Positions 1 through 19,166 of a DNA stretch of 64,000 bases are shown in pieces. Below the pieces are notes generated by a model, which ran no database searches, was not told the DNA's origin, and saw nothing but the letters and a program-made list of their open reading frames with translations. The DNA is from Spirochaetota bacterium (GTDB lineage: Bacteria; Spirochaetota; UBA4802; UBA5550). How positions within the stretch are numbered: position 1 is the first letter of the stretch; every line of letters begins with the position of its first letter. The stretch is taken from positions 480,001-544,000 of the forward strand of contig CAXXHB010000002.1 in the NCBI GenBank assembly GCA_963664815.2. Direction: 5' to 3'. Made by a program: the position numbers and the translations under genes.

Positions 1-168
1 CTTCATAAAAATTTGAAAGATGTAAATGAAGCTATGCTTAACATAAAATTTAAATATGAGATAGATGGTAAAATATACGAGCAGAAAATTAATAAAAAGA
101 TTTATCGGAGAGTTAAAAATATTCAGCTTGAAAGTGGGGTCGGTATACCTGATAAAGTTGAGGAATGA
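1..168 (+). CDS. 3' end of a gene running in from the left edge (possible immunity protein of the preceding cassette)
   Basis: Frame 1 is open from base 1 (LHKNLKDVNEAMLNIKFKYEIDGKIYEQK...PDKVEE) to TGA at 166-168. It is followed by the same repeat element that follows the 1864-2460 gene. Confidence 0.6.
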   Translation, partial: LHKNLKDVNEAMLNIKFKYEIDGKIYEQKINKKIYRRVKNIQLESGVGIPDKVEE

Positions 169-184
169 ATAAGTCCTATACAAT

Positions 185-317
185 AGCTCAGTTCACTTTC
201 ACAGAAATTCCCCATATTGCATAATTGAGTAGCTAGACCGACATCGCCGGGGCTGGATTAAGTTTCTGATACATGAGTCCGGCGATGTGCGTAGCGAACG
301 TCTAGCGACAATTATGT
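185..317. repeat. Structured inter-cassette repeat, copy A
   Basis: Shares AGCTCAGTTCACT, TTCCCCAT, ATAATTG, GACATC, CTGGAT..AGTTTCTGATACAT, CGATGT, GAACG and AATTATG with 2473-2607. Nested inverted repeats: CATAATTG/CAATTATG, GCTAGAC/GTCTAGC, ACATCGCCGG/CCGGCGATGT. Confidence 0.8.
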
Positions 318-391
318 TGAGTTGACATATTGATATTTTATTGATCTGTTCTATAATTCTGAATCAGTTAATTATTGATCTTTGAAAGTAA

Positions 392-1864
392 TTTTTTTAT
401 ATTATATACAGTGAAAAACCGTTTTCTCAGGATTGTATACGGGCAGATGTTGAAGAGGCAACAGAAACTACCAAAGCTAAAGAAGGTCTTGGATTCGCGG
501 GTACACTCGAGGCTGTAATTAATGCCCGTAAGGATGTATTAACAATAGCAGCCCTGGCAGAGAACAAGGCTTTAGCTGAAAAACTCGATAATGCACTTGA
601 TAAAGATGCGGCATCATTGGGAGAAGCGGTTAATAAGGTTTCTGAAACTGTTCAGAGCAGCGATGGAGTTAAGGATGATAAAATATCTCATGTAAATCTG
701 TATCAGGGTGATAAAACAGATAACGCGATGAATGGATATGCAGCAGCATATGACCAGAATAGTAATGAAACATATCTGAATACCGAAGGAACAGATATAT
801 CAAAGGGTGGAGATATTATTACATCACTCTTCTGGGAAGCCCAGAGGAAGGATAACACTACTAATGGGCTGGACCTTGATGCAGGACAGCAGCTAATACT
901 TGCATCTTCACGTGGAGAACAGGCGGGAAATTTATGGAACAGGTTTTCGGATACTGCTTCAATAACTACAAATCATGATGCTGTAATTAACTGGAATAAT
1001 GCGAATGCTGAATCAGATACACTGGTTAAGGGTAGCGAAAAGGCGAAAGAACTTGATACAAGTGAAGATGGTGGAGTAGTAGCGAGATCAAAACCAATGA
1101 TTTATAAAAAGACTTATCAGGAATATGATAAAAAAGTTACTATTGTAGTTACAGCTGAACGTGTAGATAAAGGTGACACGTTAGTTAATGATTTTATTGA
1201 AACTGACATGAAAGCTATATCAAAAGCCGGTGAGAAAACTGATTTTGAAAAAGTAAAGGCAATGTATTTAGAACGTAACCCTGATCTTGCTAATAACCCT
1301 GATAGTCTAAAAGAAGGGCAGATACTTATAACAGATGTTCGGATGTCAAAAGAAACTAATAAAACAATAATACCAATGGGTGATGTACTTATAAATGGAG
1401 GAGTGGATGCGACTCTTTCAATTGTACACACACTCGGTGAAGAAGTTTCATTAAATAAATATACACATTATTCGTTAGAAATAGATAATGAGAATCCGTT
1501 AAATTCATCATTTAATATAGAAACTACTCTCTTTCCAACTGTAACATATAAATCCGAAGTAGTAGGAGGTGGTTATAATTTTTCTAATAATGTTGGCATA
1601 AGTTATGGAAGATTTGAAAAAACTGAAGAAGGGTTAAACACATTTCTTGGTTCTTCAGAACAAGCAACTATTTCAATACCAGGTTTTAGCCTTTCATTAG
1701 GGAAAAGCAATCCAAGCGAAAATGGAAATTATTGGACATCAGGTTCAACAGGTATAAACCTTATTCCGGGTGCTTTAGTGAATTGGGGAGAAACCAATAC
1801 AAAACCATTTAAAATAATTAAACCTGTGACGGAAAAGAAAACATATTCACTTACGGGCGAATAA
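392..1864 (+). pseudogene. Orphan (start-less) C-terminal fragment of a large secreted polymorphic-toxin/haemagglutinin-like protein with a LysM-like segment
   Basis: The frame is open from 392, well upstream of the TTG at 617, with no ATG or SD. LysM-like motifs VDKGDTL...NPDLANNPDSLKEGQILI; G/S/N-rich variable C-terminus; overlaps the start of a small downstream gene (TAATG). Confidence 0.55.
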
Positions 1865-2460
1865 TGAAAATAAAAATTAGTGATATTCGGCTCCTTTTTG
1901 GATTAGTACTTCTCTTGATTTGTTTTTATTTTTATTTAATATCACCTTCCAAAAAAGAAGTGCAACAAAAGCAGGCTGTAATGTTACAGAATATTGTAAA
2001 CAGAGATGTAGATGAATTATCAATTGTAATAGATGTTCATAGTAAATATTCATATTTAAAGATTAAAGATAAAAAAATAATCAAAGAATTTATGGATGCA
2101 TTAAAAAACGATTCTTGTTTTCAATTCTCAATGACAGGTCAATACAACAGTGAATATGTATTGACATTACATAGCAAAAGTAATAGCGATTTGATTAAAT
2201 TAAGCAGTGACACTTTTAATAATAGTGTAAAAAGTGATTCAGTAAAGGTGACACTCTTTGAAGTTAAAAATATAGATATATTTGACCTTTATTATAAATC
2301 TATAATGGAAGGTGAAAATTTCTTTAGCCTTTTTATGGTGTACTATGGTTACGGTGAATATTATTATGAAAATTACAAATTATATAATATAATCGACAAG
2401 TATATTAAAGATAAAGGAACAGTATATAATCATTCTACGATACTGTGGGTGCGAAAATAA
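1864..2460 (+). CDS. Hypothetical membrane-anchored protein, putative cognate immunity protein
   Basis: 198 aa with an N-terminal hydrophobic helix, very low GC, translationally coupled to the upstream toxin-like ORF. Confidence 0.6.
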   Translation: MKIKISDIRLLFGLVLLLICFYFYLISPSKKEVQQKQAVMLQNIVNRDVDELSIVIDVHSKYSYLKIKDKKIIKEFMDALKNDSCFQFSMTGQYNSEYVLTLHSKSNSDLIKLSSDTFNNSVKSDSVKVTLFEVKNIDIFDLYYKSIMEGENFFSLFMVYYGYGEYYYENYKLYNIIDKYIKDKGTVYNHSTILWVRK

Positions 2461-2472
2461 ATTCGGTATAAA

Positions 2473-2607
2473 AGCTCAGTTCACTATAATAACAAGTTCC
2501 CCATGTTGTAATAATTGCATAGTTTGATGACATCAACAGTGACTGGATAGAGTTTCTGATACATTGAATCGTCGATGTACGAAAGTGAACGATCAGTAAT
2601 AATTATG
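2473..2607. repeat. Structured inter-cassette repeat, copy B
   Basis: Diverged copy of 185-317 lying 12 nt after the stop of 1864-2460. Stems: ATAATT/AATTAT, TTGAT/ATCAG, ACATCAAC/GTCGATGT, plus a TAC-GAAA-GTG mini-hairpin. Confidence 0.75.
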
Positions 2608-2749
2608 CGATATGAATATATAGAAAAAGATTTTCATTTGTTTTCAGTTAATTGTATTGTTCAAACGACTTAATTTTACTTAAGTTCTCTGTTATGAATT
2701 ATCAGCAGTAATTCCAGTTCCTTGAAAACCAACAATATAACAGCACACC

Positions 2750-2918
2750 GCGTGAGGGATTGCAGCGATATAAAACGGCAATCAATAAAGAGTAAATAGA
2801 AATCAACAGATTGGCCGTTTTATACAAGCAGAAAGCCCGGCCCTGACGAATGTGAAATAAACATTTCATATATAATAAAAAATATTAACAACATGTAGGG
2901 GCGTAAAACATTACGCCA
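2750..2918 (+). ncRNA. Flavo-1-like RNA motif / repeat element
   Basis: GCGTGAGGGATTGCAGCG - hairpin (TATAAAACGGC/GCCGTTTTATA) - AGCAGAAAGCCCGGCCC ... GGGCGTAA-AACA-TTACGCC. This matches my recollection of the Flavo-1 layout; not verified with a covariance model. Confidence 0.6.
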
Positions 2919-2939
2919 AATGATATTCAAGATCGTCAG

Positions 2940-3162
2940 TGTCACGTCCATAAACTACGGCTACACAGACAACAGAGGGCAGACAGACAAGCCTGGCCAC
3001 AATAGGAGCAGGAACAATAACCAAACCGGAAACATCGGCAGAAGGACTTGTCAACAGAGATGTAACAATATCACAATACAAACATACAGCGGAGGACTGA
3101 AAGGCGGAGTTACGGTAGATACGGCAACAGTAGTGTTGGCAACAGACAGGGAAAAGTGCTGA
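2940..3162 (+). pseudogene. Frameshifted remnant of a filamentous-haemagglutinin-like exoprotein stalk
   Basis: Joining frames gives TSINYGYTD..-SLATIGAGTITKPETSAEGLVNRDVTISQY-TYSGGLKGGVTVD, resembling the ATIGxGTI...GLNRD motif of haemagglutinin-repeat toxins. Two frameshifts. Confidence 0.55.
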
Positions 3163-3255
3163 CCGTGGGAAGCATAATTTTTTAATCAGTTCATTTAAAG
3201 AAAAGTTCCTTCTTTTTGAGGGTGTCTGTTTTTTTTGTAAGCAATTAAAACATTA

Positions 3256-4893
3256 TCATACTTTGAATTTAGAAATAATCAGCTGAAGTTCTTCTCCCGT
3301 TTTTGCCAGCGATGTAGCTGAATTAAAAGTTTTATCCATAAAAGACATCTGGGTATCAGCTACAGACCGGATCTTATTGGTCGCTGCTGTTGCACCATCA
3401 GACATTTTTGTAATCACGGAAAAGGATTTAACAACTCTTTCAGCGCCGTTTGCCATATTGTGAGTTGCAGATGAAACCTCATTAATTTTATTTACTACTC
3501 CATCAACAGAAACCTGGATCTGGCCGAATGAATCTCCGGCAATATTTACCATTTTAATTCCTTCAAGAACTTCTTTCCGGACAGACTCCATTGAATCCAT
3601 AACCTTATCGGTTTCAATCTGAATAGTTTTAATAAGTTTTGATATTTGAGAAGCTGACTGGGCTGACTGTTCTGCCAGTTTACCGACTTCGTCTGCAACA
3701 ACACCGAAACCGCGGCCATGTTCTCCAGCTCTTGCGGATTCAATAGCGGCATTCAGTGCAAGAAGATTGGTCTGTTCGGCAATGCCGGTTATTACCTCAA
3801 TTATCTGTCCAATTTCCCCGGATCTGTCTCCAAGCTCTTTTAGCCCATGTGCCAGTCCGTTGATTGTCTGATTAATAGAATTCATCTGTTGAATAACCTT
3901 CTGAATCGCATCATTTCCCTGAATAGCTTTACGTAAAGTCTCATCGGATGTTGAAGTCATTGCCTGGGCGTGCATATCAACCTGTTGTACATCTGTAAGC
4001 ATCTTGTTTATATCTGCAGAATTGCTTTCTATTATACCAATCTGTTCAGTAATTCCAATTGCAACCTGTTTGAGAATTTCAACAATTTTTCCGCTTGCCT
4101 TACTGGTTTCACCTGCATGACCAATCAACTCTTCTGATGAATTTGCAACCATGGTTGTATTAGATCCTACCTCTCTTATGAGATCACGCAGGTTTTCAGC
4201 CATTTCATTAAATTTTTTACCAAGCTCACCAATTTCATCATCAGTAGTAGCAGAGATCTCACATGTCAAATCGCCTCCTGCCATAATATCCATCTGACTT
4301 TTTATGGCAGCAATAGGGCGCGATAAAATACGTATTATGATAAATCGGCTGCATATGACACTTAAAAGAATCATAGTCATACTGACGATAACAATCTTTA
4401 ATAACAGCTGCCTTATAGGGACTATCTCCTGAGCAAAAGAGAGTTTTAATCCTGCAACATAGACAACTTTATCGTTTATATGCAGTGGAGCTGTAACATC
4501 AATAATACTCTCCTCTTCCTCGATAATTGGAACAATCTTATTTTCCTTGGCAGCCTCAAGATCTTCAGGGTCTGCTTCCTTCCCTATAAGATCGGGAGAG
4601 GTAGAAGCAATACATACGGGATGATCAGTAAGATTATAAATGTTAAATTCTTCTATGTCCGGTATATTTTTTTTCAGACGAACCAGGTCATTCTGAATAT
4701 CTTCGTTGTTTACTGTATCACTGATACTGGCATCAAATGTTGCGATGGTTTTTATAGCCTCATCTCTGACGGTATTAATAACCAGAATTCGGCTGTCATG
4801 ATAGATCATAAATGCACAAACGGTTATGATCATTACCAATATGGAATTGGAAGCAATAATTGTTTTACGAAATAAACTAATCGATTTTTTCAT
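3256..4893 (-). CDS. Methyl-accepting chemotaxis protein (periplasmic sensor, HAMP, signalling domain)
   Basis: Two TM helices, HAMP ([13 protein letters not shown]) and the hairpin motif [33 protein letters not shown]. Confidence 0.95.
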
Positions 4894-14148: not shown

Positions 14149-15698
<1,550 letters not shown>

Positions 15699-15789
15699 AT
15701 AAGGATAGATAATAACAGTCAAAATACTACTCAGTTTTGAAATAGTAAACCCTGAAAAGGCCTTTATCTTAGTATAAATATAAGAAACA

Positions 15790-15863
15790 GGGCCTGTAGC
15801 TCAGATGGTTAGAGCGAACGACTGATAATCGTTAGGTAGGTGGTTCGACTCCACTCAGGCCCA
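15790..15863 (+). tRNA. tRNA-Ile(GAT)
   Basis: GGGCCTG/CAGGCCC acceptor stem, anticodon arm AACGA-CTGATAA-TCGTT, T-loop GGTTCGACTCC. CCA not encoded. Confidence 0.97.
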
Positions 15864-15883
15864 ATTGATATGAAAAATATCTT

Positions 15884-15956
15884 GGGGGTGTAGCTCAGCT
15901 GGGAGAGCATCTGCCTTGCACGCAGAGGGTCATCGGTTCGATCCCGTTCACCTCCA
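15884..15956 (+). tRNA. tRNA-Ala(TGC)
   Basis: GGGGGTG/CACCTCC acceptor stem with G3:U70, anticodon arm TCTGC-CTTGCAC-GCAGA. Confidence 0.97.
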
Positions 15957-16153
15957 AATGCCGGATAAATGTCCTGCTTAAAATCAGAAAAGCTTTCTGA
16001 TCTTAAATAGGGCCTTTAACCGGCCCGGATCTTTTAAAACGGTTAAGTCTAAAATGAAAGTCTCATTTAACTTAACAATACAATAGTAATCGAGTTGAAA
16101 ATTGATCGAGCGATTCTGCTATCGTACGTTTACGATAGCAGAAAAAATAATAT

Positions 16154-19158
<3,005 letters not shown>

Positions 19159-19166
19159 ATATTATT

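Follow-up and report, generated by a model that had tools for sequence, protein, structure and literature searches.

We analysed a window of 64,000 nt, i.e. positions 480,001 to 544,000 of the forward strand of contig CAXXHB010000002.1 in the Spirochaetota assembly GCA_963664815.2 (G000:C2:480001-544000; C1, C2 and C3 are contigs of the source genome G000, which has a size of 5.2 Mb and is 96% complete). The left end of the window carries two copies, A and B, of a structured repeat, each a few bases behind an immunity-like gene in an array of toxin-type and immunity-like open reading frames (ORFs). The original prediction, made from the sequence of the window, had proposed that this repeat punctuates toxin/immunity cassettes, either as an attC-like recombination site or as a new non-coding RNA. 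The following genes and modules are found at the array end:

1–168, + strand: 3′ end of an immunity-like ORF (225 aa in full, G000:C2:479491-480168), no Pfam family
185–317, + strand: copy A, whole repeat (BLAST; model R1, 146 bits)
318–391, + strand: leader 1, a conserved non-coding module with eight copies in the genome (sequence comparison)
392–1864, + strand: orphan toxin-type ORF, 490 codons from stop to stop, no Pfam family (ORF list, Pfam)
1864–2460, + strand: immunity-like ORF, 198 aa, hydrophobic N-terminal stretch; the sole Pfam match is weak, YajC-like and below the cut-off
2473–2607, + strand: copy B, whole repeat (BLAST; model R1, 120 bits)
2614–2919, + strand: leader 2, ~300 nt, conserved, non-coding, five copies in the genome (TATAAT; small hairpin at 2899–2917)
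2920–3162, + strand: decayed orphan at the array end, ATG-MIFKIVSVT and a frameshifted TpsA pre-toxin fragment (..YSGGLKGGVTVDTATV..)
3256–4893, − strand: convergent chemoreceptor gene beyond the array end (ORF list)

The two diverged copies were predicted correctly. They share 74% identity across 132 of 133 nt (BLAST), and their flanks were also aligned with MAFFT. The distance of 12–16 nt from the preceding stop codons was likewise confirmed, as the upstream ORFs end at 168 and 2460, i.e. with gaps of 16 and 12 nt. A start-less toxin fragment had been proposed downstream of each copy; this is true for copy A, which is followed by the 490-codon start-less ORF, but not for copy B, where the fragment carries an ATG. 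The parts of both copies are as follows:

185–218, + strand: copy A, 5′ extension, unpaired and semi-conserved, AGYTCAGTTCACT box ... CCCCATATNGC (alignments, junction comparison)
219–317, + strand: copy A, hairpin (fold, consensus structure, pair counts)
219–227/309–317, + strand: copy A, outer stem with the core ATAATTG/CAATTAT (fold)
between outer and middle stems, + strand: copy A, internal loop AGTA/GA (fold)
232–238/300–306, + strand: copy A, middle stem (fold)
241–250/279–288, + strand: copy A, inner stem (fold)
251–278, + strand: copy A, loop (fold)
289–299, + strand: copy A, 3′ bulge, GCGTAGCGAAC (fold)
2473–2510, + strand: copy B, 5′ extension, including the AGCTCAGTTCACT box (alignments)
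2511–2613, + strand: copy B, degenerate hairpin (fold, consensus), with the core ATAATTG...TAATTAT at 2511–2606

For copy A, the nested hairpin forms with exactly the three sets of pairs that had been listed, and it has a fold energy of −39.4 kcal/mol (z −2.41; 4 of 200 shuffles were equally good). The same hairpin had been claimed for copy B. Taken alone, copy B does not adopt it as its minimum-energy structure, which has −25.7 kcal/mol (z −0.54; 57 of 200 shuffles equally good), but copy B fits the consensus structure of the family. The GCGATAT after its core is a remnant of an extended outer stem that is found in most other genomes. In copy A, conservation may start ~8 nt earlier, at TATACAAT.

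Family alignments were made with 10, 38 and 44 copies, and the 44 distinct copies come from 18 genomes. The repeat consists of a hairpin of ~97 nt with short conserved flanks and of an unpaired, semi-conserved 5′ extension of ~35 nt (..AGTTC..CAAC.AGTTCCCCATATCG). The core of the outer stem, ATAATTG/CAATTAT, is nearly invariant and is extended to 14 bp in most genomes (CATATCGCATAATTG/CAATTATGCGATGT); the 5′ end reads ATAAT[TG]G in 34 of the 44 copies, and the 3′ end reads [CT]AATT[AG]T in 31 of 44. A small internal loop separates the outer stem from the middle stem of 7 bp, which is freely variable and yet paired, e.g. one of its pairs occurs as AU 12 times, GC 11 times, CG 10 times and UA 8 times. 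The 3′-side bulge of 10–11 nt is conserved (..AGCGAAC), and so is the sequence of the G+C-rich inner stem. The loop of ~28 nt had been described as conserved, which holds within the main subfamily, but a second subfamily has a different loop in its place, and some copies contain loop insertions. The conserved 5′ box that had been proposed is present in some copies of the family alignment, but not in all of them.

Also in line with the original prediction, the letters of the stems change while pairing is kept. In the 10 copies of the source genome, 90.7% of the cells pair, and double changes are found in 6 pairs, compared with 2.0 ± 1.1 in shuffles. In the 44 copies, 89.3% of the cells pair (76.2 ± 0.7 in shuffles), double changes occur in 20 of the 28 stem pairs (reached by 0 of 500 shuffles), and there are 141 double-change cells (38.9 ± 5.4 in shuffles), figures that are generous because a model-fitted alignment of related sequences was used. 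Slid-alignment controls pair at 22–53%, and the covariation of the middle stem is visible by eye regardless of the statistics. The repeat is well supported as a family of sequence and structure and belongs to the cassette-associated intergenic hairpin repeats.

Throughout the source genome, ten full copies and one fragment of 40–60 nt were detected, a census on which BLAST, two nhmmer rounds and two covariance models agreed; the remaining matches had E values of at least 0.27. Four copies are located at C2:472860-482608 (+ strand), and six copies and the fragment at C3:2082236-2119031 (− strand). Both regions are two-partner-secretion (TPS; TpsA/TpsB) loci with orphan toxin/immunity arrays. 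As all copies sit in these two loci, the repeat punctuates orphan arrays resembling those of contact-dependent growth inhibition (CDI) and is not dispersed. The predicted tie to toxin/immunity cassettes was therefore confirmed, with all ten copies and the fragment inside two TpsA/CdiA-like orphan arrays, and the repeat is no genome-wide repetitive extragenic palindrome (REP) or miniature inverted-repeat transposable element (MITE).

The loci encode proteins of 2,175–2,308 aa with a TPS domain and haemagglutinin repeats, one on C2 and two on C3, and the C3 locus also encodes a ShlB/FhaC-type transporter (Pfam scores: TPS 144.9 bits, Fil_haemagg_2 155.8 bits, ShlB 276.7 bits). They thus exhibit the features of CDI/TPS orphan arrays, i.e. 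TpsA with TPS domain and filamentous haemagglutinin (FHA) repeats, TpsB, and downstream pairs of start-less toxin ends and immunity genes. Within the arrays, toxin-end ORFs, each with a small ORF behind it, lie downstream of the full-length TpsA genes. The Pfam families found include barnase/barstar, an AHH nuclease with PT-TG and Imm11, and a CPCC protein. All copies of the repeat are co-oriented with the genes, with one element per cassette, and both arrays are co-oriented with replication according to the GC skew. The C2 array (IS66 element left out) has a G+C content of 33.0%, with its contig at 36.5% and the main gene at 44.0%; the value for the C3 array is 36.2%, compared with 38.0%.

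Leader 1 directly follows 7 of the 10 copies and is itself followed by a start-less orphan ORF. In the window it contains the promoter-like site TTGATA-16-TATAAT (330–357), which is the best of positions 1–3300, with 11 of 12 sigma-70-like matches. Behind copy B and copy R6 the sequence continues with CGATAT.., and copy R10 is the last element of its array; at R6, a 963-aa main-gene fragment starts 12 nt downstream of the repeat. Leader 1 also occurs once behind an unrelated sequence of ~90 nt in the position of the repeat, so that the repeat and leader 1 are separable modules. The ~310 nt between copy B and the decayed pre-toxin fragment correspond to leader 2, and the other copies of leader 2 are at C3:2109727, C3:2097905, C3:2091291 and C3:2082521. 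The ATG-MIFKIVSVT of leader 2 is fused in frame to TpsA fragments of varied lengths, with joins near residue 1378 or 1858, so that the leader 2 orphans have a start codon of their own.

The orphans behind leader 1 begin differently. In the 490-codon orphan, the first ATG, GTG or TTG is at codon 75, and the ORF opens on a T7 run (392–398), in the −1 frame of a TTG mini-ORF that starts at 375. This mini-ORF (M-I-F-E-S-N-F-F) runs into the T7/T8 tract of leader 1 (window positions 375–400); its other sites are C2:473022, C2:478217, C3:2118839, C3:2111775, C3:2093582, C3:2089414 and C3:2086054. In seven of the eight leader 1 copies the start-less toxin ORF opens on the T tract in the −1 frame, and the copy with a T8 tract has a compensating 1-nt deletion 13 nt downstream. 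The ATG-MIFK at the start of leader 2 resembles this mini-ORF. The sequence pattern hints at −1 frameshifting or transcriptional slippage as a possible route of translation of the start-less orphans. About 100 N-terminal amino acids are common to six orphans (..FSQDCIRA[DE]VEEATET..) and have no counterpart in the three full-length TpsA genes.

Outside the source genome, the repeat was found in 17 of 121 other genomes of the order and in two of its seven families, i.e. in 14 of 63 genomes of family f1, 3 of 12 of family f3 and none of 46 in the other five families; an earlier model search within the family had yielded 11 of 63 other genomes. A strict pattern applied to one genome per species (185,579 genomes) gave nine stretches, eight with spirochaete titles and one on a 2.1-kb contig with a Bacteroidales title, and the same pattern gave 16 metagenome contigs. 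Collections of plasmids and phages contained no match to the repeat.

The association with cassettes extends to these genomes, as judged by the neighbouring ORFs and by 8 of 17 metagenome loci with the order toxin end, small ORF, repeat. For 33 of the 44 copies, an ORF of at least 70 codons on the same strand ends within the range from 150 nt upstream to 45 nt downstream of the start of the element; of the 11 other copies, four have <250 nt of upstream sequence. By table count, 20 upstream ORFs have at least 150 aa, compared with seven convergent ORFs of at least 150 aa on the 3′ side. The upstream ORFs include leucine-rich-repeat lipoproteins (three), a HEAT-repeat protein and an ankyrin-repeat protein (one each), and many are without a Pfam family; the toxin-end ORFs ahead of them either contain the TpsA pre-toxin motif or have Rhs-like ends. 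One locus (L064) has a weak RHS_repeat match just under the Pfam cut-off, and the ORF end ‘..YYGARY’ in another (L058) resembles an Rhs core, although it has no Pfam hit. Proteins without a Pfam family beside the repeat amounted to 18 of 35 and 25 of 40 in two Pfam scans. Two low-scoring metagenome copies have the opposite orientation and are ~400 nt from an Rhs-type immunity gene. In several loci (L113:325-400, L110, L116, L105, L101 and L050:9430-9454), the repeat is followed by a conserved stretch, GCGAGGGTGTGGAACAGGTTCAGG...GCTCAGTGACCAGG, which could be another module or represent a second family of repeats.

Breakpoints of deletions, conversions and fusions are concentrated at the two hairpin bases. 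At the 5′ base, a leader 2/pre-toxin fragment (...CAATACAATACATACA) is joined directly to the ATAATTG of R10, and the 5′ fragment of the repeat breaks off at ..GCATA, where the interior of a toxin gene takes over. Copies R2 and R3 are 100% identical from ATAATTG through the whole hairpin and diverged just upstream, and the hairpin of R5 is 95% identical to both. In two copies, L075 (of which L089 is the same copy) and L107, only model positions 40–131, i.e. the hairpin, are matched. At the 3′ base, leader 1 starts right after ..CAATTATG (ATTATG), where other genomes have CGATGT, and one copy from another genome ends at CAATT. R10 and the fragment can be described as “empty cassettes” that share the left breakpoint TACATACA^, which is 8 nt past the join of leader 1 and the pre-toxin region. 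Their right breakpoints are 36 nt apart, and both junctions show microhomologies of 2–5 nt; for these two reasons the joints look like slippage or illegitimate joining and not like a fixed cut.

Two groups of known systems share parts of this arrangement. The clusters of recombinase-associated acquired interbacterial defence (rAID-1) in Bacteroidales consist of co-oriented small immunity genes, toxin remnants and conserved intergenic repeats “reminiscent of integrons”; rAID is defined by a 5′ XerD-like recombinase, and the intergenic motifs were obtained with MEME (10.1101/471110, 10.1101/2025.05.03.651265). The arrays described here likewise combine co-oriented short immunity genes (barstar, Imm11, CPCC) with conserved intergenic repeats. 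However, they have no XerD-like recombinase gene at the 5′ end, trail full-length tpsA/cdiA-like genes and retain toxin ends. The second group are orphan cdiA-CT/cdiI and rhs-CT modules, i.e. pairs of toxin ends and immunity genes behind TpsB/TpsA that are mostly without translation initiation signals, according to the main text of Poole et al. 2011 (PMC3150448). As in the orphans described there, a short pre-toxin stretch of the main gene is kept as upstream homology, but the cassettes analysed here carry a structured repeat on their 3′ side, and the main gene is not the source of the non-coding leaders that many of them have. That main text does not contain the terms “direct repeat”, “stem-loop” or “intergenic”, and Zhang et al. 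2012 mentions neither integrons nor inverted repeats and uses “hairpin” five times, one passage being about a protein β-hairpin. None of the open full texts searched (without supplements) was found to describe a structured repeat that closes CDI or Rhs cassettes on their 3′ side.

Polymorphic toxins diversify by swapping cassettes of toxin tip and immunity gene, and the upstream crossover is well known (VENN, Rhs core). In the arrays analysed here the junction motif is NTYSGGLKGGVTVDTATV, and no VENN occurs within the C-terminal 425 residues examined. To our knowledge, the downstream boundary of the cassettes is not established, unlike the upstream crossover point. The repeat is a candidate for this boundary, as it travels with immunity genes over TPS-type and Rhs-type loci and has breakpoints at its bases, and it probably marks the end of the cassette and a point of cutting and re-joining. 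This would retain, as the best reading, the part of the original prediction in which a structured element delimits exchangeable units of toxin tip and immunity gene, but not its attC-like form; the RNA element that had been named as an alternative is likewise retained, as a less probable reading.

We tentatively prefer an interpretation in which a cassette-terminal hairpin ends the immunity transcript and also provides the 3′ recombination joint, with no dedicated recombinase. Any interpretation has to account for the constant orientation close to immunity stop codons, for the fold of the sense strand, for the promoter-like leader downstream, for an invariant AT-rich stem base beside a covarying middle stem, for one element being found behind dozens of unrelated immunity genes with different delivery systems, and for breakpoints at the hairpin bases where no local recombinase is present. 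Located a few bases past the immunity gene, the repeat would form the last module of a polymorphic-toxin/immunity cassette. At the transcript level, it may form the 3′ hairpin of the immunity mRNA, which would end or protect this mRNA and insulate it from the following cassette with its own promoter-like leader. At the DNA level, the palindrome-like repeat could be the downstream joint for duplication, deletion and exchange of cassettes by general recombination and repair, either through homology between copies or through slippage or breakage where the lagging-strand template folds into the hairpin, while the conserved pre-toxin region would supply the upstream joint. In E. coli, long palindromes in the lagging-strand template are known to be cut by SbcCD and recombined. 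The tie to cassettes, the fold, its strand bias and the clustered breakpoints are observations, whereas transcription of the repeat, an effect on RNA and the route of recombination are inferred. If the interpretation is correct, it becomes testable how arrays are built, insulated and reshuffled without an integrase, and the repeat could be used to locate toxin/immunity cassettes of unknown families in metagenomes of spirochaetes; the reach is narrow, i.e. one order of uncultured spirochaetes, which limits impact and testability.

Several observations weigh against this dual role. A T-rich tract follows only 6 of the 44 copies, and a terminator scan found no site at either window copy, so that the repeat is not a canonical intrinsic terminator. 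A hairpin for RNA stability explains neither the invariant AT-rich base of the stem (ATAATTG/CAATTAT) nor the presence of one element behind dozens of unrelated immunity genes. Several cassettes within the same arrays have no repeat. The breakpoints amount to ~6 events, mostly from one decaying array end, and could partly reflect a single history, and the identity of the copies, 72–100% over ~100 nt, is marginal for efficient homologous recombination. Moreover, the alignment used for covariation was fitted to the model, and it comprises related sequences, so that the shuffle controls and Wilcoxon p-values overstate the significance.

It appears more doubtful that the repeat acts purely at the RNA level, i.e. 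as a hairpin in the 3′-untranslated region that stabilises the mRNA, is processed by RNases or terminates transcription without a U-tract, the DNA breakpoints being incidental to a repeated palindrome. The bias towards the sense strand would fit: on the gene-sense strand, the paired columns contain 113 G-U/U-G cells vs. 27 A-C/C-A cells, and this strand gives the more stable fold for 35 (RNA parameters) and 40 (DNA parameters) of the 43 copies compared, a bias that cannot separate RNA from single-stranded DNA because the sense strand is the mRNA strand and, as the arrays are co-oriented with replication, also the lagging-strand template. The fixed orientation close behind stop codons, the presence at array ends between convergent genes (in seven cases the convergent ORF has ≥150 aa) and behind solitary immunity-like genes (L059, L062), the promoter-like site directly downstream of seven of the ten own copies, and the conservation of the unpaired bulge and loop in the main subfamily would also be expected. 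Rho-independent terminators and 3′ stabilising stem-loops are comparable in being sense-strand hairpins just past the stop codon, also between convergent genes. However, unlike Rho-independent terminators, in which a U-tract follows a G+C-rich stem, the repeat has ~97 nt, internal loops, a 28-nt loop, a T-rich tract in few copies (no U-tract behind 38 of 44) and a sequence conserved across genera. Rfam gave no match for it, with rRNA and tRNA matches only in the whole window (gathering thresholds) and chance matches of <20 bits only in positions 1–3300 (E-value threshold). The invariant stem base and the spread behind unrelated genes would be left unexplained by an RNA-level role, as would the restriction to toxin/immunity genes among all operons.

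A dedicated site for site-specific recombination, attC-like or Xer-like, is unlikely; in this case the folded sense-strand hairpin would be recognised by a recombinase encoded elsewhere that moves the cassettes. The attC sites of integrons are imperfect hairpins of ~60–140 nt directly 3′ of each cassette ORF with RYYYAAC/GTTRRRY ends, and their bottom strand, opposite the cassette ORF, is the folded, recombinogenic one. The repeat has a similar layout: the imperfect hairpin lies behind the cassette ORF, one per cassette and in one orientation, the conserved stem base leads via an internal loop to a middle stem that covaries and a top that varies, the ends are more conserved than the middle, and the fold is kept by covariation (20 of 28 pairs; 89.3% pairing). 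The breakpoints at the hairpin bases, with a left breakpoint shared by two empty cassettes, also point in this direction. Nevertheless, the attC-like reading as originally written fails with respect to core sites, platform, strand and interchangeability. RYYYAAC was found in the 5′ stem of none of the 44 copies; GTTRRRY is present at the 3′ end of five, all from the source genome and all of one junction type, i.e. with leader 1, where the junction G^TTGAGT fits the motif. In contrast to attC, the repeat has no adjacent integrase, attI or Pc platform, its sense (top) strand folds better, its inner stem and bulge are conserved in sequence, and a large 3′ bulge is found where attC has single extrahelical bases. 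The right breakpoints of the empty cassettes, 36 nt apart and with microhomology, also speak against a dedicated site.

It had been suggested to look for a tyrosine recombinase or an HUH nuclease near the array; no recombinase gene lies in or beside either array, and the arrays start with tpsA genes. PF00589 had nine matches in the genome, none of them on C2 and the nearest ~110 kb from the C3 array. For the integron integrase (TIGR02249), nothing in the genome was above the cut-off of 265 bits, and the best match, C3:1972142-1972951, is without model positions 180–234. PF01797 (Y1_Tnp) had no match in the genome at E ≤ 0.01, i.e. no Y1/HUH transposase was found with this model, while a control search matched 6 of 14 reference genomes. 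No recombinase recurs across 35 context loci (18 from other genomes, 17 from metagenomes). Three tandem tyrosine recombinase genes, which we take to be an RIT-type element, are near copies in one genome (G051: L050:17380-19900, L052:153-1109), and one metagenome contig (L111) has an integrase-like ORF 3.4 kb from the repeat. Beside the G051 recombinases, a few kb from repeat-bearing cassettes, there are HicB-type and, as judged by eye, ParE-like toxin-antitoxin genes.

Integron-like integrases and attC-like arrays do occur elsewhere in the genome. A separate attC-like repeat of ~130 nt with canonical-looking GTCTTAAC...GTTAAGAC ends has 31 copies in several arrays, some of them 4–7 kb from the IntI-like gene C3:1972142-1972951; it is absent from the toxin arrays and from 116 collected loci (645 kb), i.e. 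the hairpin repeat never mixes with the attC-like arrays of its own host. The attC-like arrays are located at G000:C3:1965152-1967922, 1367574-1387131, 2541053-2566638, 3193398-3210142 and 3686981-3692517, and at C2:310730-310860. By self-BLAST, C3:1935000-2010000 has few short repeats; the attC-like copies at C3:1965152-1967922 were found with nhmmer. It is rather improbable that the hairpin repeat serves for recombination in a cassette system that resembles integrons, has a different construction and is dedicated to polymorphic toxins. In such a system, a recombinase acting in trans or a structure-specific nuclease would recognise the folded sense strand in the lagging-strand template and join the hairpin base to a fixed position of the pre-toxin region, TACATACA^. 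Such an enzyme would make units of toxin tip and immunity gene excisable, leaving empty cassettes, and insertable behind TPS and Rhs delivery genes.

A relation to Xer sites was considered and rejected. The stem base CGCATAA...TTATGCG resembles Xer-binding arms, probably as a coincidence of AT-rich palindromes; the half-sites are ~96 nt apart, the junctions are off the border of arm and centre, and the arms of the best dif-like site of the genome differ. By a simple pattern, this site is G000:C3:496468-496499 (..TTTAACATAA-AATGAA-TTATGTTAAGT..), and its role as dif is doubtful because the maximum of the cumulative GC skew is elsewhere, near 1.9 Mb.

Intergenic palindromes are also known as REP elements, bacterial interspersed mosaic elements (BIMEs) and Correia elements, which are transcribed with the upstream gene, stabilise mRNA or are cut by RNase III, and are hot spots of rearrangement; REPs are short and have a Y1 transposase, while the others are scattered, with tens to hundreds of copies that point in either direction. 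The repeat shares the intergenic position and the palindromic nature, but differs in having ten copies at two loci in one orientation and no Y1_Tnp. That it is a selfish palindromic element (a MITE, a palindrome-associated transposable element (PATE) or of the Correia kind), inserting behind genes or hitch-hiking without a function for the host, is very improbable, since its terminal inverted repeats of up to 14 bp, its patchy distribution (17 of 121 genomes, two of seven families) and its decayed and truncated copies are outweighed by the small copy number and single orientation relative to genes, by the lack of target-site duplications in the inspected flanks and of a matching transposase (the IS66, IS21-like and DDE elements of the arrays have other ends), and by compensatory changes in 20 of 28 pairs, which show long-term selection for the fold.

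Additional candidates were rejected. Subfamily 2 has a likeness to domain V of group II introns (GAGCCCGTAT), but the bases concerned are paired to the middle stem's 5′ arm and do not form a domain V hairpin. A promoter within the repeat (TTCACA-16-CATAAT in copy A) is not conserved in the other copies, and the pattern of indels and compensatory changes argues against a small ORF within the repeat. In a comparison across the genus, the flanking genes turned out to be only ~70% identical and to belong to paralogous chemoreceptor genes. When four DNA runs (short Logan contigs) were compared with the C2 array, the joints inside the repeats were explained by contigs of paralogous copies, e.g. the joint 3941->11276, which has the loop letters of another copy in between.

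The arrays also contain insertion sequences (IS). An IS66-family element with three ORFs lies between the barstar and lipoprotein genes (G000:C2:475018-477316; L072:6018-8316), and its insertion is polymorphic, because three public runs have contigs that bridge the site without it (L072 joint 5944->8324). A second IS (~1.3 kb; frameshifted DDE transposase, inverted ends) interrupts leader 1 just after R7 (G000:C3:2111775-2113100). Contig C1 (93.5 kb, 40.8% G+C) is dense in G+C-rich short repeats (CCCCGCACCCCCGGAGGGGGCAAAG..., e.g. C1:5152-6819 and C1:83026-93510; also at a few sites on C3), which are an unrelated family. Within the window, a complete rRNA operon (16S, two tRNAs, 23S) is located at 14149–19160, 11 kb downstream of the array.

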